The notes: generated by a model not told the origin, from the letters alone. A stretch of DNA of 64,000 nucleotides from an uncultured Bordetella sp. (GCA_964652785.1 CAZZDV010000001.1:116-64115); one strand, 5' to 3'. Shown: positions 32,240 through 51,849, counted from the first letter of the stretch. Translations and numbers: made by a program.

Positions 32240-33234
32240 CCGATCCCAAGAGAATTCTTGTCATTCGTCGAGACAACATTGGCGACCTGGTATGCACCAC
32301 GCCGTTGCTTGCAGCGCTTAGGACGCGGTTCCCTGAATCCCGTCTCGGCGTCCTGGCCAATAGCTACAACGCACCGGTTCTCGCCGACAACCCCGACATT
32401 GATGACCTTCATGTCTATCGCAAGCTAAAGCATCTAGGAGCCCAAGGTGGAGTCCTCACAGCCCTTGGCCAGCGACTATCGATGCTGTGGGATTTGCGCC
32501 GGAGGAGACTGGACCTGGTCGTAGTCGCGGCGGGGATCCAGGACGAGCGTGGCGCAAGACTTGCGAAATTGCTCCATCCCCATGAGATCCTCTTTTCAGA
32601 CAAACCGACTCCAGGCCAGCACGAAGTCGCGCGCACTTTCTCGGCCGCCCGCCAACTTGGCATTACCAGTCCGATTCCTCCGGTGCGCGTCGTCGCGGAC
32701 CAAGCGAACGTCGCGCGGGCACGTAAGCAAATTGCGCGAGAGAGTCCAGGCCCCCCTTGCAAGCTTGTCGGTTTACATATCAGCGCGCGGCGGATTGCGC
32801 AGCGTTGGCCGGTCGAAAGATTTGCTGATTTTGCGATTGCCCTTCAAGAAGGACTCGGCGCGGCGACCATGCTTTTCTGGTCGCCGGGCGAAACGGACGA
32901 TGCACAGCATCCCGGTGACGATCGCAAGGCGAAGGCGATTCAGGACCTTGTGGCTGGAAAGGCGAGGCTCATTCTCTGGCGGACTACAGAACTGGGAGCG
33001 CTGATGGGGGGCCTCGAGGCATGCGACGCAGTCGTCTGCAGTGACGGAGGTGCCATGCATATCGCAGCCGGCCTTGGAAAGCGCATCGCATGCTTTTTCG
33101 GGGATTCCGATGTGGCTCGATGGCGGCCCTGGGGCGTGCCCCACAGGGTGCTTCAGGCCACAAGCGGACGGGTTGAAGATATAGAGACGAAAGACGCGCT
33201 AGAAGCGACCGCTCAGTTGTTAGGTCGAGTCTGA
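32236..33234 (+). CDS. Glycosyltransferase family 9 (heptosyltransferase-like)
   Basis: 332 aa. RILVIRRDNIGDLVCTTPLLAAL. Paralogous in layout to 27708..28724. ATGA overlap with the upstream GT4 gene. Confidence 0.8.
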   Translation: MTDPKRILVIRRDNIGDLVCTTPLLAALRTRFPESRLGVLANSYNAPVLADNPDIDDLHVYRKLKHLGAQGGVLTALGQRLSMLWDLRRRRLDLVVVAAGIQDERGARLAKLLHPHEILFSDKPTPGQHEVARTFSAARQLGITSPIPPVRVVADQANVARARKQIARESPGPPCKLVGLHISARRIAQRWPVERFADFAIALQEGLGAATMLFWSPGETDDAQHPGDDRKAKAIQDLVAGKARLILWRTTELGALMGGLEACDAVVCSDGGAMHIAAGLGKRIACFFGDSDVARWRPWGVPHRVLQATSGRVEDIETKDALEATAQLLGRV

Positions 33235-34167
33235 CCTGGAGCGATCCAGGTACCACCGCGCAGTCTCGGCTACCCCTTCCTCGAAAGTCTTCACCTCTCG
33301 CCAACCTAGTTCCGTCCGGAAGGCTGTGTCATCCAACTCGAGCGACCGGGTCAGTCGTTTGACCGCTTCGCCGCGCCCCACCGCCGTTGCGCAGGCCTCA
33401 AGCAGCCCCGGAGGGAACGGCACAAGGCGCGACTGCCTCCCAAGCGATCGAGCGATGACCATCGCCAGCTCGGGAGTCGAATGCGACGCACCGTCGGTGA
33501 CATGGAAAATGCGCCCGGATACTGCGTTCGAATCCAAGCTTGCGAGAATGGCCGACGCCAGGTTGGCTACTCCGATGAAGCTCCGCTTGTTTTGGATGCT
33601 GGCCAAAGGCAGCGGCAAGCCCCGGTATACAGCCGACATGAGCGAAAGGAAATTCGCCCTGACGCCCGGTCCGTAAACCAACGGAGGGCGGAGGATCAGG
33701 ACGCGCAAGCCGTTGCCGATGGCCTGCAGACCCTGCTCCGCCAAATGTTTCGACATGGCGTAAGCGTCGGCGGGCCTGCACGATGCGGACTCGTCGAGCG
33801 CGACCGCGCCGGATTCATCTCCCAGCACCTTGGCCGTACTCATGAAAACGAATCGAGTGACACCCATGGCCGCAGCATCGCGCGCCAGCTTTATCGTGCC
33901 ATCACAGTTCTCCACCTGATACGCCGAAGTATTCGCATCCGACGAGAGGTGAACACGCCCCGCCAGGTGCACTACCGAATCGATGCCTTCGAGTAACGGT
34001 TTCCAATTTGCCGCGCCAGAAAGCGCGGGGCTGCGACTCCACCCGATACCCGAATTCTTCGGCGGACTTCTTGACGCCGCAACGAACTCGAGGTTCGCCG
34101 TCCGGGCCGCCAGCACTGCAGCTGCGACGAAGCCGCTAGCCCCGGTGACGAGAACCCTCGAGATCAA
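33220..34167 (-). CDS. NAD-dependent epimerase/dehydratase (extended SDR)
   Basis: ORF 33220..34251 (TTG). VLVTGASGFV Rossmann motif and YAMSK catalytic Y-x3-K. I prefer the in-frame TTG at 34167 (MISRVLVTGASG) because it leaves a 94-bp divergent promoter region with manC. The start is uncertain. Confidence 0.75.
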   Translation of the reverse strand: MISRVLVTGASGFVAAAVLAARTANLEFVAASRSPPKNSGIGWSRSPALSGAANWKPLLEGIDSVVHLAGRVHLSSDANTSAYQVENCDGTIKLARDAAAMGVTRFVFMSTAKVLGDESGAVALDESASCRPADAYAMSKHLAEQGLQAIGNGLRVLILRPPLVYGPGVRANFLSLMSAVYRGLPLPLASIQNKRSFIGVANLASAILASLDSNAVSGRIFHVTDGASHSTPELAMVIARSLGRQSRLVPFPPGLLEACATAVGRGEAVKRLTRSLELDDTAFRTELGWREVKTFEEGVAETARWYLDRSRSDST

Positions 34168-34261
34168 ATGGGTCCGTCGGTTGGATTGTTGTGCAGAAGC
34201 CGAGCGGATACACTCGCGCACTTGTCGAAATAGAAGGTTTTCACATTGCAACAGCTAAGGG

Positions 34262-35692
34262 TTGTCCATGTCCGCTGAATCCATTCCGGTCAAACCGGTC
34301 ATCCTGTGTGGAGGGAGTGGTACGCGGCTGTGGCCCATGTCGCGAAAGTTCCTGCCCAAGCAGTTTCTTCCGCTCGTTTCCAAAGATACCACCCTATTTC
34401 AAGATACGATTGTACGCGCTGAGGCGGTTTCTCCGGGCGCGGAGGCCATAGTGATTTGCAACGAGGAGCATCGTTTTCTCGTTGCGGATCAGCTTGTCTC
34501 AATAGGTCGATCCGGGTTGCAGATACTCGAACCATCAGGCCGAAATACCGCCGCCGCGGTAGCAGTGGCCGCAATTGCAACCGAGGCTGAGAATCCGGTT
34601 CTCCTTGTGCTCGCTTCGGATCATGCTATCGGGAATATTGAAGCATTCAAGGGTGCGGTCGAGCGCGCGACGGCGCTTGCGGATACCGGGTATCTGGTGA
34701 CGTTTGGAATTCAACCTACCCGGCCTGACAGCGGTTTCGGCTACATCGCGCGAGGCGAAGAGATTGCGGGAACCGATGGCGATTTTCGTGTCGCGAAGTT
34801 TGTCGAGAAGCCGGGGACGGAGGAGGCCGCGGCGCTTATAGACACTGGGCTGGTCTACTGGAACAGCGGAATGTTCGCCTTCAGGTCGAGGCGTCTCATT
34901 GAAGAAATGCAGCGTTTCCGGCCGGACATTCTCACGGCCGCTCGCAGATCAGTGGACACCGCCAGTCGCGATATGGGATTCCTTCGATTGGGGCGTGACG
35001 CATTCCTTTCTTGTCCTGCAGAAGCCCTGGACCGCGCGGTCATGGAACGCACTGAGCGCGCGGCGGTCGTCCCGGCAGAGTTCGGCTGGAGCGATGTCGG
35101 TTCCTGGACGGCGCTGTGGGAGATCGCGAATAAGGACGAAAGGGGAAACGCCGTTCGCGGCGACGTCCGCATGCACGACAGCGACAACTCGATTGTCTTC
35201 AGCAATCGCAGGCTGGTGACTACGCATGGCATCAAAGACCTGATCGTAGTCGAGACGGCCGATGCCGTGCTTGTTGCAGACCGCGCGCATGCCCAGGACG
35301 TGCGAGACATTGTCGACGACCTTGTCGAGACGAATCGCACCGAGCACATCAGGCATACTCGCGTGTTTCGTCCCTGGGGCTACTACGAGAATCTTGATCA
35401 GGGTTCGGGATACCTTGTAAAGCGAATCATGGTAAAGCCGGGGGAAGCATTGTCGCTACAGATGCACCACCACCGAGCCGAGCATTGGGTAGTTGTGCGG
35501 GGTAAGGCACGGGTTACCCGGGGCGGGGAAGTGACGATGCTCGAGCGAAATCAATCGATCTATATCCCGCTTTCCGAAACCCATCGACTGGAGAATCCTT
35601 CCGAAGAGGAATTGCACCTCATCGAGGTTCAGTCGGGCGATCTTATCAGCGAGGACGATATCGTCCGGTTCGAAGACCGTTACAAGCGCTGA
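34262..35692 (+). CDS. manC: Mannose-1-phosphate guanylyltransferase / mannose-6-phosphate isomerase
   Basis: 476 aa. N-terminal ILCGGSGTRLWPMSR, plus a C-terminal cupin domain (VKRIMVKPGEALSLQMHHHRAEHWVVV). Confidence 0.9.
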   Translation: MSMSAESIPVKPVILCGGSGTRLWPMSRKFLPKQFLPLVSKDTTLFQDTIVRAEAVSPGAEAIVICNEEHRFLVADQLVSIGRSGLQILEPSGRNTAAAVAVAAIATEAENPVLLVLASDHAIGNIEAFKGAVERATALADTGYLVTFGIQPTRPDSGFGYIARGEEIAGTDGDFRVAKFVEKPGTEEAAALIDTGLVYWNSGMFAFRSRRLIEEMQRFRPDILTAARRSVDTASRDMGFLRLGRDAFLSCPAEALDRAVMERTERAAVVPAEFGWSDVGSWTALWEIANKDERGNAVRGDVRMHDSDNSIVFSNRRLVTTHGIKDLIVVETADAVLVADRAHAQDVRDIVDDLVETNRTEHIRHTRVFRPWGYYENLDQGSGYLVKRIMVKPGEALSLQMHHHRAEHWVVVRGKARVTRGGEVTMLERNQSIYIPLSETHRLENPSEEELHLIEVQSGDLISEDDIVRFEDRYKR

Positions 35693-36615
35693 CTTCCGAA
35701 CATCGCTCGAACGCGCCAACCCAGGTCGATCAGCGGGCAAAGCATTCGGGAAAAGATTTCTGGGTAAAATATTTCAGAGATCTCATTTTCATTGACCTGG
35801 CCGCCTGCCGCCCTGGTCCGGGCAAGGCTGGACGCCATGCGCGCATCCCAAGTCAGCTTTTCGGCCACGGACAGGCTGCTTAGGATACGTGGGGCGTATC
35901 GCCTGAACAACAACTGCTTGTCCCTCACGATCCGGCCACTGGGGATGTTTGCCTGGGTCATCTGGTTCCCGTGCTGCCTAATCAATGAGAACGCTTCTGG
36001 CAGCAGCACCGCCGCGCCTCGATCCAGCAGATGGAACCACATCTCGATGTCTATGGCCTGGCTAAGAGTGGGATCAAACCCGCGCAGGGCTGCCTCCCGA
36101 CGGAACATGACCGCGCTGGGTTCGCCAATCCTGTTTCCGTGTACAAAGCACTCGCGCAGCATGTCGGCCGGGGCCACCACCTCTTTTCGCTGCCGCGCCC
36201 TGGAGACCCGTACAGGCCGCAACTCCGGATCGGTAAGAGTTCGACCGCAGGCAGCCAGCGCAGCGTCCGGATGATCGTTGAGGGCGCCGGCCAGGAATTC
36301 GGCGCAACCCTTTTCCAGGACGTCGTCGGCACACAGAATCATTACATATGACCCGGCGGCGCTTTCGATGCAGGCATTGAAGTTACGTGCCATCCCGATG
36401 TTTTCTGGGTTACGGCTGACCCGCACGCGACGATCGGTGGCCGTAATGTCCTGAACAATTGTCCACGTTTCGTCGGTCGAGCAATTGTCGACCACCAGGA
36501 CCTCGAGCGGAGCGTATTCCTGTCGCATTGCAGAGCGAAGCGCGTCCGACACCACCCGCGCATCGTTGTGCGTCGGGATGCAAATGCTGACCAGCGGACC
36601 GACGCTAGCGCCCAT
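35680..36615 (-). CDS. Glycosyltransferase family 2
   Basis: ORF 35680..36699, likely start at MGASVGPLVSICIPTHND. Also VLVVDNCSTDETW and CADDVL (DXD-like). Confidence 0.8.
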   Translation of the reverse strand: MGASVGPLVSICIPTHNDARVVSDALRSAMRQEYAPLEVLVVDNCSTDETWTIVQDITATDRRVRVSRNPENIGMARNFNACIESAAGSYVMILCADDVLEKGCAEFLAGALNDHPDAALAACGRTLTDPELRPVRVSRARQRKEVVAPADMLRECFVHGNRIGEPSAVMFRREAALRGFDPTLSQAIDIEMWFHLLDRGAAVLLPEAFSLIRQHGNQMTQANIPSGRIVRDKQLLFRRYAPRILSSLSVAEKLTWDARMASSLARTRAAGGQVNENEISEIFYPEIFSRMLCPLIDLGWRVRAMFGSQRL

Positions 36616-37762
36616 GCGCGCGCGCAGCTTCGAGTATGTCCCGGTAAGGCACATCGTGCAGGTTCGGGTCGAAGCGGGGCGATCGGCTGAACAGCGCATG
36701 ACTGATGAATTCCCGCACCCGGCGTGGATACTTTCCCGGCACGAATCGAAAGAGCGCGTAGACCGAAGCTATGGTGCCATACACAATGATTTCCCAGAAT
36801 CGCAGCATCCTGAGCACCTTCAGGTACCGGCCAGGATCGCTTGAGCTCAATACGGCGTGATACTGGAGCCGACGATATCGAGAGTACGATACCCGTGGGC
36901 TCAATTCGGAGAAGTTTCGCTTGAGCGTCTCCATGGCGCATAGCCACGAGTCGTTCATATTGGTTCCGGGAACGACCTCGCCGCGTAACCGCTCGACGAT
37001 CTCTGGCGCCGCGACGTTGTGCAGAAACTCCACGCCGTCGCTCTCCATTGCATTCAGGTAGTAGTACCCGAAGGATTTGGGGCTGATGCCGATGAGGCAG
37101 ACTGCCTCCGGGGTAGCCACAATCTTCTCTGCCATAAGAAGCACTGCGTTGGCGGCGTAATAGTCAGGATACGGTGACTGGAAAAAACGCCCCTTGCTTC
37201 CAAGGTTCTCAACCAGCCTGCGGCTGAAAACGAAATGCTGCATGTTGAAGCCATACAGGATGCGAAAATCCATGGCGGCGCTCACCATGCTTAGAGCCTC
37301 TTTCCGCGAGAGTTCAAACGGCGTGTTTCGTCCGGCCAGGAAGGCGTTGTAGCCCGTCTGGATGAACGGGCTTTCGTGCCCCGGGACAACATGGGGATAT
37401 GCATACTGGTGTGCTTGGGCGTAAATGGCGTCGGGACTGCCCCACGCATCGATCAACTGCCGGACAGTTGAAAGACTTCCCGGAAGAAGGACGTCGTCAT
37501 CCCCGAGCATGATGAAATAGTCGCCCGTTGCCGCCTCCAGCGCTGCATTCCAGTTGTCCGTGACCGGCACTAGCTGGTTAAAACGGTGGGTAAGAATGCG
37601 CGGTTCGCCGATCTGGGAAACTGCGGCCGCGATATCGACTTCCGAAGCGTTGTCTGAAACCACGACCTCCCAGTCGCCGTAGTCCTGGGAGCGCACCGAT
37701 TCGATCGCAAGCAGCAGCAACTCGAGCCGGTTACGCGTTGGCAACAGGATGGAGAACTTCAC
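36605..37762 (-). CDS. Glycosyltransferase family 2 with a C-terminal extension
   Basis: 385 aa. MKFSILLPTRNRLELL...VVVSDNAS...MLGDDDVL. Confidence 0.75.
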   Translation of the reverse strand: MKFSILLPTRNRLELLLLAIESVRSQDYGDWEVVVSDNASEVDIAAAVSQIGEPRILTHRFNQLVPVTDNWNAALEAATGDYFIMLGDDDVLLPGSLSTVRQLIDAWGSPDAIYAQAHQYAYPHVVPGHESPFIQTGYNAFLAGRNTPFELSRKEALSMVSAAMDFRILYGFNMQHFVFSRRLVENLGSKGRFFQSPYPDYYAANAVLLMAEKIVATPEAVCLIGISPKSFGYYYLNAMESDGVEFLHNVAAPEIVERLRGEVVPGTNMNDSWLCAMETLKRNFSELSPRVSYSRYRRLQYHAVLSSSDPGRYLKVLRMLRFWEIIVYGTIASVYALFRFVPGKYPRRVREFISHALFSRSPRFDPNLHDVPYRDILEAARAHGR

Positions 37763-38712
37763 GCCGGCTTTCGGAACACGGCGGTGTAAGCGCTCCCGAC
37801 TCCTTCCCGCCGCTCGGCAAACGCGGTAGCAGCGCTGATGCTGCGTCCCACGCGACGAAGCAACCGTTTAGCCAGTCTCCCTGAAACCAGATGCGGTAGC
37901 GAGTACACCCAGCCAAACTCATTCCACCCCAGGCTTCCAGTGTCGGTAGTAGTGCACAGCTCCTGCCTCAACCCGGCGCGTTCGGCACGCGAGCGCAATA
38001 AGTCTGCGGGAATGAGGTGCAGGTGACGCGGCGCGTCCACATGCGCCCAGTAGCGTCCAAGGATCCTGAACTGAAGCGCCTCCGGGTTGGGCACCGCCAG
38101 AACGAGCACGCCTCCTGGCGCAAGCCGATCGGCGGCGGCATCTATCAGCCGCCAGGGGTCGCGCAGGTGCTCAAGGACGTGCCAAGCCGCGATCACATCG
38201 GGCGTCGCAGCGTCCGAAAGCGCAGCAGCCTCATCGCTGCGGCAAATGGCGCGCACGCCGATGCGGGACGTAAGGAAGTCGCAGCAGTCGGGATCCATTT
38301 CGATCGCTTCCACTGAAAAGCCTGCACGCTTGGCAAGGAGGCAGAAGGCGCCCCACGAAGGCCCGATCTCAAGCAACCGCCCGGACGGGACGAACTTCCG
38401 TACGAGATCGATCTTGTACTTCTCGTGCTCTACACCTGCCTCGATGGCAGCCGCCGAGGCTGGCTGCAAGTGGTAGCCGGACACATAGTAAGGAGCCAGA
38501 TCCTCTGGAACGTTTTCCAGCGAAGTCAGGCCGCACTGTACGCACTTCGCGTAGTGAAATATGTCGTTCGACGCCGTGTGGTTGAAATCCCGGGTGTCGA
38601 AAGCAGCACCCATGACTCCTCCGCATGCCCCGCACCGGGACCACTCTTCGCCGACATGCGATCGGGGATCAATCGTGGACACGATCAATCCGGCCGGGCA
38701 TTGTCGCCCCAT
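37759..38712 (-). CDS. Class I SAM-dependent methyltransferase with an N-terminal CxxC...CxxC zinc-ribbon-like motif
   Basis: 317 aa. RCGACGG...KCVQCGL, then LLEIGPSWGAFCLLAKRAGFSVEAIEMD (SAM motif I). An alternative GTG start at 38682 would remove the 28-nt overlap with the upstream gene. Confidence 0.7.
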   Translation of the reverse strand: MGRQCPAGLIVSTIDPRSHVGEEWSRCGACGGVMGAAFDTRDFNHTASNDIFHYAKCVQCGLTSLENVPEDLAPYYVSGYHLQPASAAAIEAGVEHEKYKIDLVRKFVPSGRLLEIGPSWGAFCLLAKRAGFSVEAIEMDPDCCDFLTSRIGVRAICRSDEAAALSDAATPDVIAAWHVLEHLRDPWRLIDAAADRLAPGGVLVLAVPNPEALQFRILGRYWAHVDAPRHLHLIPADLLRSRAERAGLRQELCTTTDTGSLGWNEFGWVYSLPHLVSGRLAKRLLRRVGRSISAATAFAERREGVGSAYTAVFRKPA

Positions 38713-39590
38713 GCGTATTGGGCAAGTTCTGCGCGCGTTGCTGCGTCGGACTCCAGATAGTGCTCGGTCTGGTTATCCGCCACCAGGAGATTCTCCTCGC
38801 GTGATTGCCAAAAGGTGTTGGATTGATGCCAACGCTCCGGTTCGTAGCCCATACCATCCCGACCCACGACAAGCACCCGCAATCCGAGCCTGCGCACCTG
38901 ATTCGTGAGACTGTCCTTGCCGCTTTCGAACTTGTAGGCCGACAACTTCATGCGCAGTGGTCCGAGCCTCACGCGGCGCAAAGTGTCTCGAGACGCCATG
39001 AACGCATTCGTCCTCACGTGCGGATTCGGAAACGGCGGAAAATCACGCGCCGGACGCCATACTCCGGCCATGCGCAGGACTACCCTGAACGCGCGTTGCG
39101 CATTCGCGTTCGGACGCCGGTCCCGGAGCGCCCGGCCGATCCTGCGCAGAAACTGCGTCGCGGGGGGGAGGGACTTCAAGTGGCGCTCTTCGCGCGTGTA
39201 TCCGCCCGCAATGCTCTGGCACGACCCGGTTGCGCCTACAAGACCTACGTCGCTTGCCTCGCCCCATCGGTTCATCTTCTCGAGCCAGCCGTCGGCAAGG
39301 ATGCGGCTGTAGGAATTGAGAAAGCAGAAACGCGAGTGATCCAGCTGCCTGGCCGCGTCGAAATAGGCATTGAGGTCGAGCCCGCGATCGGAAATGAACA
39401 GCCGGCGATGTGGAATATCCGCCAGGAGCGCGTTGTGTTCTGGACACTCCCCGTGGAATCCCTTGAATAGAATCACCAGGTCGTGCGACACCCCGGGCGA
39501 ATGCGATTGCCAGGACGCGATGAACCTCTCGAACGGGGCAATCCCGTTTTGCTTGCGTGCCAAATGCACTACCGCCAGCCCGGCCATCAA
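38685..39590 (-). CDS. Hypothetical protein with no family I can name
   Basis: 301 aa, soluble. Its start forms an ATGA overlap with the upstream rmlD-like stop, and its 3' end overlaps or abuts the downstream methyltransferase start. Coding is supported by operon packing and length. There is no recognisable catalytic motif beyond a loose beta-strand/D-x-D-like region (LFISDRGLDLN). Confidence 0.5.
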   Translation of the reverse strand: MMAGLAVVHLARKQNGIAPFERFIASWQSHSPGVSHDLVILFKGFHGECPEHNALLADIPHRRLFISDRGLDLNAYFDAARQLDHSRFCFLNSYSRILADGWLEKMNRWGEASDVGLVGATGSCQSIAGGYTREERHLKSLPPATQFLRRIGRALRDRRPNANAQRAFRVVLRMAGVWRPARDFPPFPNPHVRTNAFMASRDTLRRVRLGPLRMKLSAYKFESGKDSLTNQVRRLGLRVLVVGRDGMGYEPERWHQSNTFWQSREENLLVADNQTEHYLESDAATRAELAQYAWGDNARPD

Positions 39591-40456: not shown

Positions 40457-40462
40457 TGCGTA

Positions 40463-40993
40463 TCAGCCTGCGAATAGGGGAAAGGAGCGGTCCCGGTCCG
40501 ACATCGCGGGATTGGCGATCGGCCATTCGATGCCAAAAGCCGGATCGTCCCATCGAACGCCGCTCGCGGACTCCGGATAGTAGAACTCGGCCATCATGTA
40601 GAGCACTTCCGCATCCTCGGTCAGCGTCTGGAATCCGTGGGCAAAGCCCTTGGGGACATAGACAGCGCGTCGCGTCTCCGCGCTAAGCTCGATGCCGAAC
40701 CATTTCCTGTATCCCTGCGACTCAGGCCGCAAGTCGACGATCACGTCCCAGATCGCGCCTCGGGTACATCGCACGAGCTTGTCTTCCGCGTGGGGGAACA
40801 CCTGAAAGTGCATTCCGCGCAATGTGCCGCGGACGGGATTGAAGGACACGTTGCACTGGGCGACGTCGGGGTTCAATCCCTTCCCTTCAAACTCCTCCCG
40901 GCAAAATGATCGCGCAAAAAAGCCGCGGTCATCTTCGAGGCGCTTCATCTCGATGACGTAAGCGCCCATCAGCGGCGTGGGCAGAAAGATCAA
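40463..40993 (-). CDS. NDP-4-dehydro-6-deoxyhexose 3,5-epimerase (RmlC-like cupin), paralog 1
   Basis: 176 aa. DDRGFFARSF...RGMHFQ...GFAHGF. This is the second RmlC-family gene in the window. Confidence 0.8.
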   Translation of the reverse strand: MIFLPTPLMGAYVIEMKRLEDDRGFFARSFCREEFEGKGLNPDVAQCNVSFNPVRGTLRGMHFQVFPHAEDKLVRCTRGAIWDVIVDLRPESQGYRKWFGIELSAETRRAVYVPKGFAHGFQTLTEDAEVLYMMAEFYYPESASGVRWDDPAFGIEWPIANPAMSDRDRSFPLFAG

Positions 40994-43132: not shown

Positions 43133-43137
43133 CGCCG

Positions 43138-44403: not shown

Positions 44404-45167
44404 AAGTCGTCATTCTTGCAGGTGGATTGGGCAGCCGCATCAGCGAGGAATCGCACTTGAAGCCCAAACCGATGATCGAGATCGGCGGAAAGCCGATCAT
44501 CTGGCACATCATGAAAATCTATTCCACCTATGGCCTTAACGATTTCATCGTTTGTCTGGGCTACAAGGGCTATGTCATAAAAGAGTATTTCGCGAACTAT
44601 TTCCTGCATATGTCGGACGTCACTTTCGATCTCTCCAACAATTCCATGCATGTTCACCAGAACAATGCCGAACCATGGCGGGTGACCTTGGTGGAAACCG
44701 GCGAGAACACCCAGACCGGCGGACGGCTCAGGCGAGTCCGGGAGTACCTTGACGAAGAGGATTTCTGCTTCACCTATGGGGACGGTGTAAGTGATGTGGA
44801 TGTCCGCGCGCTTATCGAGTTCCATCGCAACTCGGGACGACTGGCGACCCTGACCGCCGTGCAGCCGCCCGGACGTTTCGGGGCATTGAATCTCGAAGAC
44901 ACCCGGGTCGTGTCTTTTGAGGAGAAACCCAAGGGAGACGGAGGCTGGATCAACGGGGGATTCTTCGTGCTGTCGCCGAAAGTAACCAGCCTCATCGAAG
45001 GCGACTCAACGGTATGGGAGCGCGGCCCCATGGATAAACTGGCCGATGACAGCCAGCTGGGGTCTTATTTTCACAAGGGTTTCTGGCAACCGATGGATAC
45101 CCTGCGCGACAAGAACCATCTCGAAGATCTTTGGACAACCGGCACTGCCCCTTGGAAGAAGTGGTAA
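44400..45167 (+). CDS. rfbF: Glucose-1-phosphate cytidylyltransferase
   Basis: 255 aa. [39 protein letters not shown] closely resembles RfbF/DdhA. Confidence 0.9.
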
Positions 45168-46252
45168 TGGACTCGGAGTTCTGGGCAGGGCGCAAGGTTT
45201 TCCTCACCGGCCATACGGGCTTCAAGGGCAGCTGGCTGGCGCTCTGGCTGCAGCAGTCGGGTGCGCAAGTGCTTGGATATTCGTTGGAGCCCCCAACCGG
45301 TCCGAACATGTTCCAAATTGCAGGCGTGGGAGACGAAATGCGCTCGATTTTCGGGGACATCCGCGACCTCGAGAAGGTTTCCTCCGCCATGAGCGAGTTC
45401 AAGCCGGAAATCGTATTTCATCTTGCGGCCCAGTCACTGGTACGTCCTTCATACGCCGACCCGGTCGGAACGTACGCGACCAATGTGATGGGGACAGTAC
45501 ATGTCCTCGAGGCTATTCGCTCCGTAGAAAGCGTCCGGGCTGCCGTCGTCGTATCGAGCGACAAGTGTTACGAAAACAATGAATGGGTATGGGGGTACCG
45601 TGAAACAGATCCTATGGGCGGTTTCGACCCCTACAGCAGCAGCAAAGGCTGCACGGAGCTTGTCAGTGCAGCCTTTCGGCAATCTTATTTCTCCTCTGCA
45701 GGCGGAATCGCTTCACGGGTACGCCTTGCATCCGGACGCGCCGGGAACGTGATCGGCGGTGGCGACTGGGCGACTGACCGGCTCGTGCCCGATTTCCTCA
45801 AGGCGATGGCGCGAGGCGAGCCGATCCGGATCCGCAACCCGCACGCTCAACGGCCTTGGCAGCATGTACTTGAGCCATTGAGCGGCTATGCTTTGCTGGC
45901 TGAGCGCCTGATTGGACCGCGTGGAGAAGATTTCGCCTCAGGCTGGAATTTCGGCCCGGATGACAAAGATGCGATACCGGTCTCCGAGATCGTGACGACA
46001 CTGACTGGATTGTGGTCATCGAAGGCCGCCTACGAGATTGCCGAAGGTGAACATCCACACGAAGCGTCATTCCTGAAGTTGGATTGCTCCAAAGCCCGCG
46101 CGCGCCTCGGCTGGCGACCGCGTTTGAACGTTGATTCCGCGCTTGCATGGACTGTCGAATGGTACAAAGCGCTGCACGCCGGCTCCGACATGCGTAACGT
46201 AAGCGTGGATCAGATTGCCCGCTTTAAATCCATCGCCCCTGACATCGACTAG
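45167..46252 (+). CDS. rfbG: CDP-glucose 4,6-dehydratase
   Basis: ORF 45131..46252. Start [24 protein letters not shown] at 45167 (TAATG overlap). SDR Y-x3-K (YSSSK). Confidence 0.9.
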   Translation: MDSEFWAGRKVFLTGHTGFKGSWLALWLQQSGAQVLGYSLEPPTGPNMFQIAGVGDEMRSIFGDIRDLEKVSSAMSEFKPEIVFHLAAQSLVRPSYADPVGTYATNVMGTVHVLEAIRSVESVRAAVVVSSDKCYENNEWVWGYRETDPMGGFDPYSSSKGCTELVSAAFRQSYFSSAGGIASRVRLASGRAGNVIGGGDWATDRLVPDFLKAMARGEPIRIRNPHAQRPWQHVLEPLSGYALLAERLIGPRGEDFASGWNFGPDDKDAIPVSEIVTTLTGLWSSKAAYEIAEGEHPHEASFLKLDCSKARARLGWRPRLNVDSALAWTVEWYKALHAGSDMRNVSVDQIARFKSIAPDID

Positions 46253-46283
46253 TTCCGCTCAACCTATCCTGGGATTCATAGAA

Positions 46284-47510
46284 ATGTATCGTTGTCGGTT
46301 TTGCCAATCCGGTCTTTCCGAGACCTTCGCAGACCTTGGCATGTCTCCTCTTTCGAACTCCTACATTTCGTCCGGGCAGCTAAACGGCATGGAGCGCTTC
46401 TATCCCCTTCATGCATACGTCTGCAGTTCCTGCTTTCTCGTTCAGCTCGCCGAGTTTGAAACTCCCGACAAGATCTTCTCGGACTACGCGTACTTCTCCT
46501 CTTACGCGGACAGCTGGCTGAAACATTGCGCGGCTTATGCAAAGGAAATGATCACCCGGTGGAACCTCGGCGCGGGCTCCCTGGTCCTGGAGGTAGCCAG
46601 CAATGACGGCTATCTGCTGCAGTATTTCAAGCAGTCAGGAGTTCCAGTGCTTGGCATTGAGCCGGCGGCCAATGTGGCAAAAGTCGCTATGGAAAAGGGC
46701 ATCCCCACCGAGGTCTCTTTTTTCGGCGAAGCCAAAGGAGCCGAGCTCGCAGCCAGGGGGCAATCTGCGGATCTCATCGCTGCGAACAACGTGCTTGCAC
46801 ACGTCCCGGACATAAATGATTTCGTGAAAGGCTTCAAGAAAGCCCTCAAGCAGGGCGGCCGTATTACGGTGGAATTTCCGCACCTGCTGCAAATGATGCG
46901 CCATAACCAGTTCGACACCATTTACCATGAGCATTTCTCTTACCTGTCGCTTGGCTTCGTGTCCGGCCTTTTCGACAAGCATGGCTTGCGTGTGTTCGAT
47001 GTCGACGAGGTTCCCACTCATGGCGGTTCGCTGCGTGTGCATGGATGCCACAAGGAGGATCCTGGCAAATCGACGTGTGCTGCTGTAGGCGCGGTCCTCA
47101 AGCAGGAGAGCGAAGAGGGCTTGTCGGACCTGGAGGCTTACCGGCGTTTTGCCAGGGCGGTTGTCCGAACGAAGTGCGAAGTCCTCGATTTCTTCGTTGA
47201 GACGCGGCGCGCAGGAAAACGCGTAGCTGGATACGGCGCGCCCGCGAAGGGCAATACTCTGCTTAACTACTGCGGAATCGGCCGTGAGTTCATCGAGTTC
47301 ACGGTTGACCGCAGTCCCCATAAGCAGGGACGCTTTCTCCCCGGCACACACATCCCTATCCTTGCGCCTGACGCCATAGCGAAGTTCCGCCCGGATTACC
47401 TTTTCATTCTTCCCTGGAATCTACGCGATGAAGTTGTCGGGCAGATGACCGGAATCCGGGAGTGGGGCGGGAAGTTCGTCGTTCCAATACCCAAGGTGGA
47501 AGTCTTCTAG
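46284..47510 (+). CDS. NDP-hexose C-methyltransferase (TylC3-like: Zn-binding N-domain, class I methyltransferase, C-methyltransferase C-domain)
   Basis: ORF 46215..47510, start at MYRCRFCQSGL. LEVASNDGYLLQYF SAM motif. C-terminal PDYLFILPWNLRDEV is typical of the C-methyltransferase family. Confidence 0.8.
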   Translation: MYRCRFCQSGLSETFADLGMSPLSNSYISSGQLNGMERFYPLHAYVCSSCFLVQLAEFETPDKIFSDYAYFSSYADSWLKHCAAYAKEMITRWNLGAGSLVLEVASNDGYLLQYFKQSGVPVLGIEPAANVAKVAMEKGIPTEVSFFGEAKGAELAARGQSADLIAANNVLAHVPDINDFVKGFKKALKQGGRITVEFPHLLQMMRHNQFDTIYHEHFSYLSLGFVSGLFDKHGLRVFDVDEVPTHGGSLRVHGCHKEDPGKSTCAAVGAVLKQESEEGLSDLEAYRRFARAVVRTKCEVLDFFVETRRAGKRVAGYGAPAKGNTLLNYCGIGREFIEFTVDRSPHKQGRFLPGTHIPILAPDAIAKFRPDYLFILPWNLRDEVVGQMTGIREWGGKFVVPIPKVEVF

Positions 47511-48259
47511 TGTCCGATGAAAGCTTGGTTCTCTCGGTCGTCAGCCATGGACAGCGGAGCATTCTGCTCGACCTTCTTGATGACCTTACGGACAACGTCC
47601 GGACGCCGTTCCGCCTCATCCTTACCGAGAACATTCCCGAAGAGCCGGATCTACCCGTATCCCGCTATCCGTTCCCGATCGAGGTTGTAAAAAACCTGAA
47701 GCGCCGTGGGTTTGGCGCGAACCACAACGCGGCCCTCGGACGCTCTCGCGGCGAGTTGTTCTGCGTGCTCAACCCAGATATCAGGATTCCATCGGACCCG
47801 TTCCCGGTACTGGGTGCAATTGCGGCAAGCCCGCTCGTTGGCGTGGTAGCGCCCGTTGTAAGAGCCCCAGACAACTCGATCGAAGACCATGCGCGGCAGT
47901 TTCCGAACATTTTCACGCTCTTGGCAAAGGTGTTCGGGCATCGACCGCGCATGGTTCCAACTGAAGGCCGGTCCGACTACCGCGTAGATTGGATAGCCGG
48001 GATGTTCATGCTGTTTCGAAGCGAAACCCTGCGCTCTGTCGGCGGGTTCGACGAAAGGTATTTCCTCTACTACGAGGATGTGGACCTGTGCGCAAGGCTA
48101 CACGAGAGGGGGCTGGGGGTAGCGGTAAACACGGCAGTATCCGTAACGCACCATGCTCGGCGAGAGAGCCGTCGGAATCTCAAGTACGCCTGGTGGCACC
48201 TTGGCAGCGCCGCTCGCTTTCTGGCGTCCCATCCGCGAATTGCGCTCGGTCTGAGATAG
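47510..48259 (+). CDS. Glycosyltransferase family 2 (rhamnosyltransferase-like)
   Basis: ORF 47462..48259. The GTG at 47510 overlaps the upstream TAG. LSVVSHGQ...LNPD...YYEDVDLC motifs. Confidence 0.75.
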   Translation: MSDESLVLSVVSHGQRSILLDLLDDLTDNVRTPFRLILTENIPEEPDLPVSRYPFPIEVVKNLKRRGFGANHNAALGRSRGELFCVLNPDIRIPSDPFPVLGAIAASPLVGVVAPVVRAPDNSIEDHARQFPNIFTLLAKVFGHRPRMVPTEGRSDYRVDWIAGMFMLFRSETLRSVGGFDERYFLYYEDVDLCARLHERGLGVAVNTAVSVTHHARRESRRNLKYAWWHLGSAARFLASHPRIALGLR

Positions 48260-48289
48260 GGCGCGCAACCGAAAGCGGTAAATCGAAAC

Positions 48290-48841
48290 TCATTCGAAGC
48301 GCTCGGCCGTAGCGAATGTCCGGCCCTTTCGATCCTTCTCGCTGAGTACCGGCTCACCCACTTCCGCCAAGGGCCACTCGATTCCTAGTTCGGGATCGTT
48401 CCAGAGCAGGGTCCGCTCATGTTCGGGCGCGTAGAAATCGGTAGCCTTATACATGACCTCAGCTGTTTCCGAGAGGACTAGGAATCCATGCGCGAATCCG
48501 GGCGGGATCCAGGCCATCCGCCGATTCGCCGCCGAAAGCCGAAGTCCCGCAGCCCCGCCGAAAGTTGGCGAGCTTGCTCTCAGGTCCACCGCAATGTCGA
48601 AGATTTCACCTGATATGGCCCAAATGAGCTTTCCCTGCGGCTGCCTGATCTGGTAATGGAGGCCACGCAAGACGCCTCTGGTTGAACCGGAATGATTGTC
48701 CTGAACGAAAGCCGGGTCGACCCCCGTATCGTCAAGAAATTGACTACGGTTGTAACGCTCCAGAAAGAACCCGCGCCCGTCGCCATGAACCTTAGGCGTC
48801 AGGACAAGAACATCCCGGAGAGTGGTTTTCTCGACTTTCAC
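48290..48841 (-). CDS. rmlC: dTDP-4-dehydrorhamnose 3,5-epimerase
   Basis: 183 aa. [10 protein letters not shown]...RGLHYQ...GFAHGF. Immediately downstream of rmlA with a 4-nt overlap. Confidence 0.9.
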
Positions 48842-49716
48842 TTGAACACCTTCTCTGACAGAACCCGCGCCAGATACTCGCCATAGCTGCTTTTTGCCAG
48901 TGGTCTTGCGAGCGATTCGAGCTGGCCTGAATTTATGAAACCGGCCCTATATGCGATCTCTTCCAGGCAAGCGATCTTCAGGCCCTGACGTCGTTCTATG
49001 ATCTCGATGAACTGCGAAGCCTCCAGAAGGGATTCGTGCGTCCCAGTGTCAAGCCAGGCCAGGCCGCGACCCATGGGAATCACATCCAACTCCCCTCGTT
49101 CGAGATAAATACGATTGACATCCGTAATCTCGAGTTCTCCGCGCGCCGACGGTTTCAGCGTTGCAGCGATGTCAGCCACCTTGGCATCGTAAAAATACAA
49201 ACCCACTACGGCGTAACGGGATTTCGGCCGCTGGGGCTTTTCCTCGATACTCAGCGCGCGCCCGGCGCTATCAAACTCCACTACGCCGTATCGCTCCGGA
49301 TCGTTTACAAGGTATGCGAATATGGAAGCTCCGGCTCGTCGCGCCGCCGCCTGCTTGAGGAGGGATGAAAGGTCGTGACCATAAAAGATATTGTCGCCGA
49401 GAATAAGTGCAACCCGGTCCTTTCCAATAAAATCCTTACCGATGATGAACGCCTGGGCCAATCCTTCAGGCGCCGGTTGCTCGGCGTACGTTAGATGGAT
49501 TCCGAGCTGCGCCCCATTGCCAAGCAGTTGCTCGAAGCGGGGCAAGTCCTGTGGCGTGGAGATGACAAGGATCTCCCTTATCCCCGCCAGCATCAGCGTC
49601 GAAAGGGGATAGTAAATCATAGGTTTGTCGTAGATCGGCAGGAGCTGTTTCGAGACAACCTGCGTCACTGGATACAGGCGCGTGCCGGATCCTCCTGCCA
49701 AAATAATTCCCTTCAT
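48838..49716 (-). CDS. rmlA: Glucose-1-phosphate thymidylyltransferase
   Basis: ORF 48838..49770, start [16 protein letters not shown] at ATG 49716. Confidence 0.95.
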
Positions 49717-50843
49717 AGCATACGTCCCGAATCGAGCCGCTTGAGGTCGGCATTCACCATAATGCGGCAAATCTCCTCGACTTCCTTGCCGGCTTTCCAG
49801 TCAAGCAGTAAGCGAGATTTACCGGGGTTTCCGCACAAAGGGTGAGCCTCTGCCGGTCGAAAGAACTGCGGTGACACCTTGACCCGAATTTTTCCGGTGG
49901 CGTTTTCGATCCCGGTTTCATCAAGACCGGCGCCCTGCCAGATTAGTCCCATCCCCACGGCTTTGAACGCAGCATCGACAAACCTGCGGACCGTTGTGAG
50001 CCTCCCGGTCGCCAAGACGAACGAATCCGGCGTGTGTGACTGGAGAATCCGCCACATGCCGTCCACATACTCCGGCGCGTATCCCCAGTCCCGCCGTGCG
50101 TCGAGGTTCCCGAGCTCTAGAAATTCCTGTTGCCCCCGGCTGATGCGCGCCGCGGCAGAGGTAATCTTGCGCGTCACGAACTCATTTCCGCGCAGGGGGG
50201 ACTCGTGGTTGTACAGGATGCCGCTCGAAGCGAATACGCCGAGATCGTTCCTATAATTCGCCGTCGCCCAATGCGCGAAAGCTTTGGAGATTGCGTAAGG
50301 GCTTCGCGGATTGAAGCGAGTTTCCTCGTCTTGCGGTGAAATCTCCGGACTACCAAACATCTCAGAGCTCGATGCTTGGAAAAACCGCGCTTTTGGATGC
50401 CTGCATCGAATCGCCTCGAGCAAATTCCAGGCGCCCAACCCGGTAACGCGGGCCGCGCCCAAGGGATCGGAGAATGAGAGTCCGATGAAACTCACACCGC
50501 TAAGGTTGTAGACCTCGCCGGGCCTCGCGCCTCCCACGGCTTCCAAACATCCTGCGGCGTCGGCGACATCCAGCTCGATGATCCGCAGACGTGCGTGAGA
50601 CCTGATTCCCAACTCTTCCAGCCGCCAGAGGCTCGAGGAAACGAGACTGCGCACGGAACCGGTGACTTCGTAGCCTTTTTCAATCAGCAGTCGGGCTAGC
50701 AGCGCACCGTCCTGACCGGAGACTCCTGTAATCAGGGCTGAGCGGGAGTCGATGTTTTCCGCTCCACGGCCGGCCGGCCTTTCAAGCAGCGCCCCGCGCC
50801 GCGTAATTGCGGTCGATCCAGTTCCTGTAGCCACCGGTGGCAA
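49713..50843 (-). CDS. gmd: GDP-mannose 4,6-dehydratase
   Basis: [18 protein letters not shown]...[11 protein letters not shown]...RSPYAISK...[11 protein letters not shown]...FFRPAE closely resembles Gmd. The start is unresolved. ATG 50843 overlaps rmlB by about 60 nt, and there is no in-frame ATG/GTG/TTG after the rmlB stop (only CTG). Confidence 0.85.
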
Positions 50844-51849
50844 TGTCCTCCACCCACTCCTGGTGGCTGACGTACCAGTCGACTGTTCTCTTTAACCCGG
50901 AATCGAACGATTCCTTCGGCTCCCATCCGAGTTCTGTCCGGATCTTCGACGAATCGATGGCGTATCGGCGATCATGGCCCGGCCGATCCTTGACATAGGA
51001 AATCAGCGATGTATAAGCGCCTTTGCCTGAAGGCCGGGCAGCATCGAGGAGCGTACAAAGCTTCCGGATCAGGTCGATATTCGTCATCTCGGCACCGCCA
51101 CCGATGTTGTACGTCTCGCCCACCCGGCCCTTCTCAAGGACTTTCCGGATCGCTGAACAGTGGTCGCCGACGTACAGCCAGTCGCGGACGTTGCGGCCGT
51201 CGCCGTACACGGGGAGCGCCTCCCCGCAGAGCGCGTTTCGGATCATGAGGGGGATCAACTTCTCAGGGAACTGGAACGGGCCGTAGTTGTTCGAGCAATT
51301 CGTCGTCAGCGTGGGCAGGCCGTAGGTGTGGTGATAGGCCCGCACGAGATGGTCAGAGGCGGCCTTGGATGCGCTGTAGGGACTGTTTGGCGCGTAAGGC
51401 GTTATTTCGCTGAAAGGGGGATCGGCTGCAGTAAGCGAGCCGTAGACCTCATCGGTGGAAACATGCAGGAATCGGAATGCCTTCCGTGCGCTTTCATCCC
51501 CGGCACTCCACCAGGCCTTGAGCTCATCTAGCAAGGTGAAGGTCCCGACAATGTTCGTCTGCACGAAATCGGAGGGACCATGGATTGACCTGTCCACATG
51601 GCTCTCCGCCGCAAAATGCACGACTGCTCGAGGTTTGTGAGTCCTCAGGAGTCGTCGCACCAACTCGCGGTCGCAGATGTCCCCGCGGACAAGCGTGTGC
51701 CGCGGATCATTGCGAATGGAATCGAGGTTATGCGGATTTCCGGCATAAGTGAGCTTGTCGAGATTGATGACGGCCTCACCCACGCCGGAAACGCAATCCA
51801 AAACGAAATTGGCGCCAATGAAGCCGGCGCCACCGGTGACTAGTAACAT
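50782..51849 (-). CDS. rmlB: dTDP-glucose 4,6-dehydratase
   Basis: 355 aa. MLLVTGGAGFIGANFV...YSASKAASDHL is a classic RmlB pattern. Confidence 0.95.
   Translation of the reverse strand: MLLVTGGAGFIGANFVLDCVSGVGEAVINLDKLTYAGNPHNLDSIRNDPRHTLVRGDICDRELVRRLLRTHKPRAVVHFAAESHVDRSIHGPSDFVQTNIVGTFTLLDELKAWWSAGDESARKAFRFLHVSTDEVYGSLTAADPPFSEITPYAPNSPYSASKAASDHLVRAYHHTYGLPTLTTNCSNNYGPFQFPEKLIPLMIRNALCGEALPVYGDGRNVRDWLYVGDHCSAIRKVLEKGRVGETYNIGGGAEMTNIDLIRKLCTLLDAARPSGKGAYTSLISYVKDRPGHDRRYAIDSSKIRTELGWEPKESFDSGLKRTVDWYVSHQEWVEDIATGGYRNWIDRNYAARGAA

Follow-up and report, generated by a model that had tools for sequence, protein, structure and literature searches.

A predicted CDP-linked 3-C-methyl-6-deoxyhexose cassette with an ABC exporter in the lipopolysaccharide core region of an uncultured Burkholderiales bacterium

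Why does one lipopolysaccharide (LPS) locus carry the genes for three nucleotide-sugar carriers, and do all three serve a single exported polymer? The question is raised by a 64,000-nucleotide stretch of DNA from an uncultured Bordetella sp. (GCA_964652785.1 CAZZDV010000001.1:116-64115), called the window below. Its positions 33220-51849 hold genes for sugar activation with deoxythymidine diphosphate (dTDP; rmlA/B/C), guanosine diphosphate (GDP; manC, gmd) and cytidine diphosphate (CDP; rfbF, rfbG), together with the ATP-binding cassette (ABC) transporter Wzm/Wzt and three family-2 glycosyltransferases (GT2). Pfam scans place this cluster within the LPS core (waa) region, adjoining the WaaL ligase. 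A first-pass annotation of the window had joined the three carriers into one exported polymer. The answer favoured here, with a probability of about 0.6, is that the locus is a mosaic in the waa region, composed of a module with Wzm/Wzt and a predicted pathway to a CDP-6-deoxy-3-C-methyl-L-hexose, plus a framework of dTDP and GDP genes. The genes that the annotation had named (rmlA/B/C, an RmlD-family gene, manC, gmd, rfbF/G, Wzm/Wzt, three GT2 and a short-chain dehydrogenase/reductase, SDR) are all present by their family scores, and the glycan is very probably deoxyhexose-rich and chemically unusual, as it had proposed. Its inventory had left out a C-methyltransferase (46284-47510), a second RmlC-like epimerase (40463-40993) and another methyltransferase (37759-38613).

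The CDP branch was examined with gene boundaries taken from the gene calls on an identical ENA metagenome contig (ERZ505514 NODE_355, 104 kb), and families were assigned with Pfam, the curated cut-offs of NCBIfam/TIGRFAM and sequence searches of the PDB. RfbF, the glucose-1-phosphate cytidylyltransferase that forms CDP-D-glucose (44400-45167, plus strand), reaches 468 bits against TIGR02623 (cut-off 300) over its full length (1-255/255), and its start overlaps the wzt stop. RfbG, the CDP-glucose 4,6-dehydratase (45167-46252, plus), scores 497 bits against TIGR02622 (cut-off 278). Directly after rfbG lies the gene for a 408-aa NDP-hexose 3-C-methyltransferase of the TylC3/TcaB9/MtmC family (C-MT; 46284-47510, plus), so that the branch does not stop at CDP-4-keto-6-deoxyglucose, where the first-pass annotation had ended it. 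The C-MT has the domains that define its family, namely the N-terminal zinc-ribbon PF08421 (82 bits), a class I S-adenosylmethionine (SAM) domain (PF13489, 60 bits) and the C-terminal PF08484 (211 bits). Residues 3-407 align with MtmC (4rv9, 291 bits), KijD1 (5t64) and TcaB9 (3ndi), including the CxxC...CxxC cysteines of the zinc ribbon and the catalytic Y-x-E-H motif, which reads YHEH here and YDEH or YHEH in the solved relatives. Methyl transfer to C-3 is predicted for this enzyme, and its gene neighbourhood points to CDP as the nucleotide of its substrate.

The other members of the branch are encoded on the opposite arm. RmlC2 (40463-40993, minus), a second RmlC-like cupin epimerase, matches TIGR01221 with 177 bits and is only 41% identical to the canonical RmlC1 of the locus, with the His, Lys, Tyr and Asp positions aligned; it is a predicted 5-epimerase of a CDP-4-keto-3-C-methyl sugar. 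It is followed by the gene of an RmlD-family NAD(P)H 4-ketoreductase (39587-40456, minus), with 235 bits against TIGR01214 (cut-off 224) and 155 and 93 bits against the PDB RmlDs 1vl0 and 1kbz, respectively. Next come unk300 (38685-39587, minus), which falls into no Pfam or NCBIfam family; MT23 (37759-38613, minus), a class I SAM methyltransferase (PF13489, Methyltransf_23, 80 bits) whose N-terminal segment is rich in Cys; and the family-2 glycosyltransferase GT2a (35680-36654, minus; PF00535, 92 bits). The whole module, from about 35680 to 47510, is 11.8 kb long and consists of two divergent arms around a 224-bp intergenic region (40994-41217).

The reading of the CDP branch depends on how these genes travel together. 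For comparison, species-representative genomes were scanned with the C-MT, contigs encoding homologues of unk300 or of the SDR at 33220 were added, and all window proteins were mapped onto the resulting loci (numbered with the prefix L). The order RfbF-RfbG-C-MT-RmlC-like-RmlD-like-unk300-(MT23)-GT2a recurs in four distant contigs (L047, L052, L053 and L054; unk300 51-67% identical), where the RmlD-like gene again follows the RmlC-like gene at 62-72% identity. A Wzm/Wzt pair lies upstream of this cassette in L047, L052 and L053 and not in L054, and none of the four has gmd or rmlB inside it. The window holds the same set, split into its two arms. About 24 additional loci (Acetobacteraceae, Actinomycetes, Phycisphaerae, Paenibacillus, Usitatibacter and others) have an RfbF homologue no more than 10 kb from the C-MT, mostly accompanied by an RmlC2-like epimerase and an SDR; across most of the distant loci the RmlC2-like gene is within 10 kb of the C-MT gene and usually adjoins it. 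The C-MT gene directly follows rfbF-rfbG both in the window and in over 10 independent loci, and in the loci compared unk300 always comes directly after the RmlD-like gene. Because RmlC2, the RmlD-like enzyme, unk300, MT23 and GT2a recur in order with the CDP genes, they are assigned functionally to the CDP branch; and because the cassette order recurs in distant contigs, usually beside Wzm/Wzt, the branch most likely ends in a CDP-6-deoxy-3-C-methyl-L-hexose, possibly in an O-methylated, vinelose-like form.

Among 72,556 plasmids the C-MT has 172 matches, all below 60% identity, and unk300 has none. A homologue on a Bacillus cereus plasmid (54% identity) has no rfbF/G neighbours, and one on an Agrobacterium pusense plasmid is accompanied by rfbF and an rfbC-like gene in a Wza/Wzc-type cluster. 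A literature search returned no relevant paper that joins a C-methyltransferase, a cytidylyltransferase and an O-antigen.

Several known systems share parts of this design. The rfb loci of Salmonella enterica groups A, B and D and of Yersinia pseudotuberculosis combine rmlBDAC, rfbF/rfbG (ddhA/ddhB) and manC/manB in one O-antigen cluster, so the co-occurrence of dTDP, CDP and GDP carriers, which the first-pass annotation had stressed, is textbook for Salmonella. Those rfb clusters differ in being Wzx/Wzy-dependent, whereas export here is by Wzm/Wzt, and in their CDP branch, where 3-deoxygenation by DdhC/DdhD (E1/E3) and the action of Abe/Prt/Tyv lead to 3,6-dideoxyhexoses. E1/E3 are replaced in the present cluster by a 3-C-methyltransferase together with an RmlC-like epimerase and an RmlD-like reductase. 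Pfam and NCBIfam detected no homologue of DdhC or DdhD, and no aminotransferase-like or ferredoxin-reductase-like open reading frame (ORF), in the cluster, whose ORFs are all assigned to other families. Lacking DdhC and DdhD, the cluster is not counted among the CDP-3,6-dideoxyhexose systems.

A closer parallel is the four-gene CDP-cereose/CDP-cillose operon of Bacillus cereus, reportedly described by Li et al. in the Journal of Biological Chemistry in 2017. It consists of a glucose-1-phosphate cytidylyltransferase, a CDP-glucose 4,6-dehydratase, a SAM C-methyltransferase and a 4-reductase. The first three enzymes have counterparts here, with RfbF, RfbG and C-MT contiguous on the plus arm and an RmlD-family reductase on the divergent arm. 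The Bacillus operon has no RmlC-like epimerase and gives D-series gulo/allo products, which decorate spore glycoproteins; compared by description, the present locus adds an epimerase, an RmlD-family reductase, O-methyltransferases, a GT-A-like protein and an ABC exporter. The extra epimerase therefore makes it a variant of the Bacillus-type pathway and not the same pathway. The CDP-cereose and CDP-cillose pathway, named in PMC7725333, is a precedent for a CDP-linked 3-C-methyl-6-deoxyhexose.

The dTDP-L-mycarose-type pathways (TylC3/EryBIII, a TylK/EvaD-type 5-epimerase and a 4-ketoreductase) run through the same series of a 4-keto sugar, 3-C-methylation, 5-epimerisation and 4-reduction. They act on dTDP-2,6-dideoxy or amino sugars in actinomycete antibiotic clusters, whereas the present locus has CDP-specific activating genes, no genes for 2- or 3-deoxygenation, and an LPS context. 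A product of the predicted kind was reportedly described in the late 1960s by Okuda, Suzuki and Suzuki, namely the CDP-vinelose (CDP-6-deoxy-3-C-methyl-2-O-methyl-L-talose) of Azotobacter vinelandii. To our knowledge it is the only described CDP-linked sugar of the 6-deoxy-3-C-methyl-L-hexose type, and we know of no genes assigned to it. Its formation needs the activities predicted here, namely CDP-glucose synthesis, 4,6-dehydration, 3-C-methylation, 5-epimerisation, 4-reduction and O-methylation.

In the proposed pathway, RfbF would form CDP-D-glucose and RfbG would convert it into CDP-4-keto-6-deoxy-D-glucose. The C-MT would then methylate C-3 via a C-3/C-4 enolate, following the chemistry of TylC3, TcaB9 and MtmC. 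Since C-3 would be quaternary after methylation, RmlC2 is expected to invert C-5 only; the 5-epimerases of L-mycarose-type pathways likewise act at C-5. Reduction of C-4 by the RmlD-family enzyme would give CDP-6-deoxy-3-C-methyl-L-mannose or -L-talose, these two being the outcomes of C-5 inversion because C-2 would keep its D-gluco configuration. MT23 and/or a TIGR04371-type methyltransferase might then O-methylate the sugar or the chain end to a vinelose-like residue. The glycan would be polymerised on undecaprenyl diphosphate at the cytoplasmic face by unk300 with GT2a (and GT2b), exported by Wzm/Wzt and ligated to lipid A-core by the neighbouring WaaL. The family identities of the genes, their conserved order and the presence or absence of the module among relatives are direct observations; the nucleotide specificity of C-MT, epimerase and reductase, the stereochemistry, the position of O-methylation and the pairing of transferases with donors are predictions drawn from them.

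An alternative is that the C-MT acts on GDP-4-keto-6-deoxymannose or dTDP-4-keto-6-deoxyglucose, giving a sugar of the virenose or evalose type, and that the CDP sugar feeds a non-methylated product. Both substrates, products of Gmd and RmlB respectively, could be made in the cluster, and all solved relatives of the C-MT use dTDP-sugars. In Coxiella burnetii, whose O-antigen contains virenose (6-deoxy-3-C-methyl-gulose), the TylCIII-like methyltransferase CBU_0691 is encoded beside gmd and fcl, and GDP- or dTDP-4-keto sugars have been put forward as its substrates (PMC3539893). That system resembles the predicted one in placing a 3-C-methyl-6-deoxyhexose in an LPS O-antigen, and differs in that no rfbF/rfbG partnership is described for it, while gene order here points to CDP. 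The recurrent position of the C-MT gene directly behind rfbF-rfbG makes the alternative highly improbable, as do the cassettes of L047 and L052-L054, which have no gmd or rmlB between rfbF and the glycosyltransferases. The genes also separate in both directions, for L009 keeps the C-MT (with rfbF/G) and has no gmd, while L050 has gmd and rmlB and no C-MT. Furthermore, the alternative would leave CDP-4-keto-6-deoxyglucose with no other enzyme in the cluster, given that DdhC/DdhD homologues are absent.

The remaining sugar-activation genes form a set of their own. RmlB, the dTDP-glucose 4,6-dehydratase (50782-51849, minus; TIGR01181 499 bits, cut-off 365), RmlA, the glucose-1-phosphate thymidylyltransferase (48838-49716, minus; TIGR01207 500 bits, cut-off 361), and RmlC1, the canonical dTDP-4-dehydrorhamnose 3,5-epimerase (48290-48841, minus; TIGR01221 243 bits, cut-off 156), all exceed their cut-offs. 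Gmd (49713-50834, minus) reaches 367 bits with PF16363 and 375 and 338 bits with the PDB enzymes 2z1m and 1rpn, and stays below the TIGR01472 cut-off (367 vs. 415). The gene order is rmlB-gmd-rmlA-rmlC, with gmd between rmlB and rmlA (window 49713-51849) and no rmlD in the operon. L007, L008 and L050 are alike in this, gmd included, even where the exporter module is missing, and gmd is absent in L009. GDP-mannose would be supplied by ManC, a bifunctional mannose-1-phosphate guanylyltransferase/mannose-6-phosphate isomerase (34262-35692, plus; TIGR01479 627 bits, cut-off 373; NTP_transferase and MannoseP_isomer domains). Divergent from manC lies an extended SDR of the NAD-dependent epimerase/reductase family (33220-34158, minus; PF01370, 93 bits), and at the far end of the module GT2c, a family-2 glycosyltransferase with weak GT2/GT21 Pfam matches (47510-48259, plus).

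That these genes belong to the site and not to the exporter is indicated by L050, a 1.2 Mb contig in which the same core locus reads MsbA-GT4-GT9-RmlB-Gmd-RmlA-RmlC-[Ugd]-GT2c-ManC-SDR-GT9-GT4-WaaL, at 54-81% identity to the window proteins (67% for GT2c). The 11.8 kb block from GT2a to C-MT is absent there, and the 21 kb retrieved hold no Wzm/Wzt and no CDP genes. Since L050 keeps the dTDP/GDP genes, the SDR and GT2c without the module, these are the framework of the site, whose role needs no exporter. The framework (rmlB-gmd-rmlA-rmlC1, manC, SDR and GT2c) could provide L-rhamnose together with mannose and/or a GDP-6-deoxyhexose, destined for the outer core, an adaptor or extra residues of the polymer. 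Variation is seen in the other loci as well; L011 keeps the module and lacks rmlA and rmlC1. Such independent variation of genes among close relatives is the usual picture of a variable O-antigen locus. Inactivation of a pathway in other strains, which the first-pass annotation had named as evidence that would refute it, was not seen. Short gene calls in L049 and L011 (RmlC2 116 aa, unk300 88 aa, ManC 239 aa) had suggested pseudogenes, and direct translation showed the genes to be intact, with no stops; the calls are artefacts of start-codon choice, so the loci give no evidence of an inactivated pathway.

L050 thus also tells against the view of the first-pass annotation that the three carriers feed one polymer. 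In its fullest form this view has a single Wzm/Wzt-exported heteropolymer built from L-rhamnose (RmlABC1 and the RmlD-family gene), from D-rhamnose or another GDP-6-deoxyhexose (ManC and Gmd, the SDR at 33220 serving as an Rmd-like reductase) and from the CDP-derived sugar. The genes are contiguous between core genes and are kept together in L007, L008, L048 and L051, rmlA/rmlC1 or manC also adjoin the cassette in L047 and L052-L054, and four glycosyltransferase candidates (GT2a, GT2b, GT2c and unk300) would suffice for a repeat of two to four sugars. We nevertheless regard it as doubtful, since gene order ties the RmlD-family gene to the CDP cassette, the L050 framework points to a role independent of an exported polymer, and the C-MT and the second epimerase are left out of account.

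The heteropolymer also leans on the SDR, for which the annotation had suggested the role of GDP-branch reductase. ManC and Gmd are indeed present; the SDR is not recognisable as an Rmd orthologue. Its best PDB match is the GDP-6-deoxy-D-mannose reductase 6x3b, which speaks for the heteropolymer, but at 50 bits this is no better than its matches to dTDP-glucose dehydratases, epimerases and other SDRs, and all NCBIfam SDR equivalogs match it weakly. By PDB and NCBIfam searches the window has no Rmd orthologue, and the SDR is the sole candidate. Orthologues with 54-62% identity lie between GT9 and manC in L048, L049, L050 and L051, so that the closer homologues are fixed neighbours of manC and GT9; a metagenome scan with the SDR returned relatives of at most 47% identity, with uninformative neighbourhoods. 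Three roles are possible. The SDR may be an Rmd-like reductase, given that it is always beside manC and, as the heteropolymer would have it, is retained alongside manC and gmd in L011, which lacks rmlA and rmlC1. It may instead substitute for RmlD, as the 21 kb retrieved of L050 contain rmlBAC and lack an RmlD-family gene. Or it may be a WbpK/WbpV-like reductase of UDP-4-keto-6-deoxy-N-acetylhexosamine, a possibility that counts against the heteropolymer and is suggested by a 41% identical relative in L054 that adjoins WbpL-like and WbpM-like genes. The arrangement wbpK/V-wbpL-wbpM is typical of the reductases for UDP-N-acetylquinovosamine and UDP-N-acetylfucosamine.

Assignment of reductases has a consequence for the dTDP branch, for which the annotation had counted on a complete rhamnose set. 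RmlA, RmlB and RmlC1 stand; the RmlD-family reductase, by gene order, is part of the CDP/C-methyl cassette, although it may possibly be shared with dTDP-L-rhamnose synthesis. If it serves the CDP branch, dTDP-L-rhamnose has no reductase of its own in the window and needs a shared or distant one. The 64 kb window holds no second RmlD-family gene, and dTDP-4-keto-rhamnose might be reduced by the RmlD-like enzyme too, by the SDR at 33220 or by a reductase elsewhere in the genome. Bifunctional Gmd enzymes have been reported (PMC3539893), so reduction at C-4 in the GDP branch could be due to Gmd itself or to the SDR.

Is the product an O-antigen? Wzm, an ABC-2 permease (42287-43132, plus), scores 72 bits with PF01061 and matches NCBIfam permeases of the galactan/KpsM type. 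Wzt (43138-44403, plus; PF00005, 80 bits) is an ABC ATPase whose nucleotide-binding domain reaches 199 bits with its best PDB matches, 8dku and 6amx (labelled just 'ABC transporter'), and whose C-terminal extension of about 165 aa may be a carbohydrate-binding domain. No ORF of 33220-51849 gives a Wzx- or Wzy-type match. Together with the flanking WaaL, GT9, GT4, WaaA and MsbA genes, this supports an ABC-transporter-dependent (Wzm/Wzt) LPS glycan cluster with dTDP-, GDP- and CDP-activation, in agreement with the first-pass annotation, and the glycan is predicted to be an O-antigen. The waa region extends from WaaA (23175-24752) to a GT9 gene (57133-58215) and includes MsbA (54144-56000), several genes of the GT9 heptosyltransferase family, GT4 genes and the WaaL-type O-antigen ligase (29795-31072, plus; PF04932 Wzy_C, 64 bits). 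The common polysaccharide antigen of Pseudomonas aeruginosa, an ABC-dependent homopolymer of a deoxyhexose (D-rhamnan), likewise combines Wzm/Wzt, gmd, a manC homologue (wbpW) and methyltransferases. It differs in having a true Rmd and the GT4-family rhamnosyltransferases WbpX/Y/Z, and no CDP/C-methyl branch.

The glycan of the module could also be something other than an O-antigen, such as a capsule-like polymer, a glycolipid or a protein glycan, with the waa location incidental. Similar cassettes do occur in loci of Actinomycetes, Paenibacillus and Anaerolineales, most of which are unlikely makers of LPS O-antigen, the known CDP-C-methyl sugar precedent decorates Bacillus spore glycoproteins, and the window yielded neither an initiating transferase nor a chain terminator. 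We consider this very improbable here, because the module in this lineage always lies between LPS core glycosyltransferases, WaaL and MsbA, because a Wzm/Wzt pair with a C-terminally extended Wzt is the classical format of O-polysaccharide exporters, and because the window has no KpsD/E/C/S or Wza/Wzc genes. As to the subclass of such systems in which export is coupled to terminal modification, the cluster has two small methyltransferases and no WbdD-like kinase or coiled-coil protein, and in L052 and L053 the Wzt proteins that accompany MT23 are short. In L054, a Glycos_transf_4 protein adjoins the cassette.

In some related loci, unannotated proteins of 385-444 aa with no Pfam match are encoded ahead of RfbF, between Wzt and RfbF in L052 (2215-3438) and L053 (2299-3486), and immediately before RfbF in L054 (925-3431), where no Wzt is visible. 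They are dissimilar to the TIGR04371 methyltransferase that sits upstream of Wzm in the window. Toxin-antitoxin and related small genes (HicB-like, PIN, PhdYeFM, HepT/NTP_transf_2, DUF433 and TumE) are scattered among the rml and manC genes that flank the cassette in L047 (14268-17886) and L052 (12157-16820).

The transferase for the branched sugar is best sought in unk300, one of two ORFs with no Pfam match; the first-pass annotation had counted three GT2 enzymes, which is correct, and one orphan ORF. The AlphaFold2 model of unk300 (pLDDT, predicted local distance difference test, 85; pTM, predicted template modelling score, 0.83) has a GT-A-like fold. All 50 of the 50 PDB matches listed by Foldseek are GT-A glycosyltransferases, the best being the fucosyltransferase WrtF (9omn, E 9e-7, TM score 0.45-0.55). 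The protein has 1621 homologues, none of them functionally named, the named ones being 'hypothetical protein'. A sequence link to GT2 was not obtained, since both hhalign against GT2c and permissive Pfam searches were insignificant; 3 of 35 family members reach E ~0.06 with Glyco_tranf_2_5. From its fold and gene position, unk300 is a candidate GT-A-like glycosyltransferase for the CDP-activated branched sugar.

The other transferases differ in how closely they follow the cassette. GT2a is a conserved member, with homologues (42-49% identity) after MT23 in L052-L054 and after the GT-A-like gene in L047. GT2b (36605-37762, minus) combines an N-terminal GT2 domain (PF00535, 63 bits, residues 4-106) with a C-terminal region of about 230 aa that has no assigned function; it is kept at 61-70% identity in L007, L011 and L051, and 38-43% identical relatives adjoin unk300-like genes in L009 and L027. 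The latter locus belongs to a cultured bacterium, Plastoroseomonas arctica LMG 28251, and combines RfbF-RfbG-C-MT-RmlC2 with its unk300-like and GT2b-like genes. MT23 follows the GT-A-like gene in the cassettes of L046, L052, L053 and L054 (55-80% identity) and is a candidate O-methyltransferase for the branched sugar. The second Pfam-less ORF (41218-42294, plus) is a putative sugar O-methyltransferase with 120 bits against TIGR04371 (cut-off 44) and no Pfam or PDB match, and behaves as a variable accessory gene, present in L008, L009, L011 and L051 and absent in L007 and L048.

Several points weigh against a mosaic with a CDP-C-methyl module. For the C-MT, RmlC-like and RmlD-like families, characterisation has mostly been on dTDP-sugars, and sequence does not reveal which nucleotide is used. 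The RmlD-like gene exceeds the rmlD equivalog cut-off (235 vs. 224 bits) and may be nothing other than RmlD. Against three 4,6-dehydratases (RmlB, Gmd and RfbG) and two epimerases, the 64 kb window has only two candidate 4-reductases, the RmlD-like enzyme and the SDR at 33220. The link to vinelose depends on literature of the 1960s, and a literature search gave no paper naming vinelose. As for the transferase, unk300 has no canonical DxD motif; an insignificant alignment pairs its invariant N91-S92-x-S94 with the N-P-D of GT2c. On the export side, the Wzt_C match of Wzt (27.3 bits) is under its cut-off of 30.4, and no WecA/WbpL initiating transferase (Glycos_transf_4) was found in the window among ORFs of at least 250 aa and the smaller cluster genes; such a transferase may be located elsewhere in the genome. 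Finally, enzymes of the MtmC type, the closest solved relatives of the C-MT, can act as 4-ketoreductases (PMC10269268), so the order of steps may differ.

What makes the locus noteworthy is less the number of carriers than the CDP/3-C-methyl cassette, together with an unannotated GT-A-like partner; both are widely found among environmental bacteria. Surface polysaccharides seldom contain C-branched sugars, whose genes are mostly unassigned or proposed in silico only, as for the virenose of Coxiella, the 3-C-methylmannose of Helicobacter and the CDP-vinelose of Azotobacter. The locus and its relatives offer a compact candidate set for a CDP-3-C-methyl-6-deoxy-L-hexose pathway, its likely transferase (from an unannotated family of more than 1600 members) and its exporter. 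If this set proves right, it would enlarge the glycosyltransferase repertoire by a new donor/transferase pair and account for an abundant unannotated cassette in environmental metagenomes. A bolder and rather unlikely proposal is that the eight-gene cassette RfbF-RfbG-C-MT-RmlC-like-RmlD-like-unk300-MT23-GT2a encodes the synthesis of CDP-vinelose-type sugars (6-deoxy-3-C-methyl-(O-methyl)-L-hexoses), and that it directs a polymer consisting largely of C-branched sugar, polymerised by an unclassified, DxD-less GT-A family with a CDP-hexose donor and widespread on uncultured soil and water bacteria of several phyla.

The source organism is an uncultured member of the Burkholderiales. The closest genomes with the same cluster are metagenome-assembled genomes (MAGs) labelled 'uncultured Bordetella sp.', 'Burkholderiales bacterium' and 'Pseudomonadota bacterium', to which MsbA is 84-91% and the cluster genes are 57-85% identical. 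Several other MAG contigs from Burkholderiales/Pseudomonadota keep the cluster in synteny, with amino-acid identities of 54-91%, so its ORFs have not come together by chance. The G+C content of the cluster is modestly below that of its flanks (0.58-0.59 vs. 0.61-0.64), which is compatible with horizontal acquisition and no proof of it. On the plus arm, stop and start codons overlap at wzt/rfbF, rfbF/rfbG and C-MT/GT2c, as in translational coupling. Between the arms, 40994-41217 holds a single promoter-like site, a weak sigma-70-like match at 41101-41130 (plus); over the sequence as a whole, promoter-like matches are below and terminator-like matches within the expectation from shuffled sequence.

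Other parts of the window hold features of separate interest. Inside the core oligosaccharide region, a GT2 gene and an FkbM-family methyltransferase gene (25371-27112, plus) suggest a methylated core sugar; at the matching site L050 and L051 have a DUF4254 gene and a Methyltransf_21 gene. Directly upstream of the waa region lies a resistance-nodulation-division (RND) efflux operon (16476-23145, plus) with an HlyD-type adaptor, an AcrB-type pump and an outer-membrane factor. On the minus strand (11523-13636), a fusion of a Ser/Thr protein kinase with a cyclic-nucleotide-binding domain (12344-13636) overlaps the start of the BacA/UppP undecaprenyl-diphosphate phosphatase gene (11523-12347), an unusual pairing near an LPS locus. 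A thiamine pyrophosphate (TPP) riboswitch (15618-15716, minus; RF00059, 63 bits) precedes thiC, and since the longest thiC ORF (13653-15659) overlaps it, the true start of thiC is further downstream. A TonB-dependent receptor gene (58270-60480), presumably BtuB-like, is immediately preceded by a cobalamin riboswitch (60408-60647, minus; RF00174, 106 bits). Towards the beginning of the window, a nitrogen regulation block of the glnA-ntrB-ntrC type (6231-10820, minus) encodes glutamine synthetase, a PAS histidine kinase and a sigma-54 activator.

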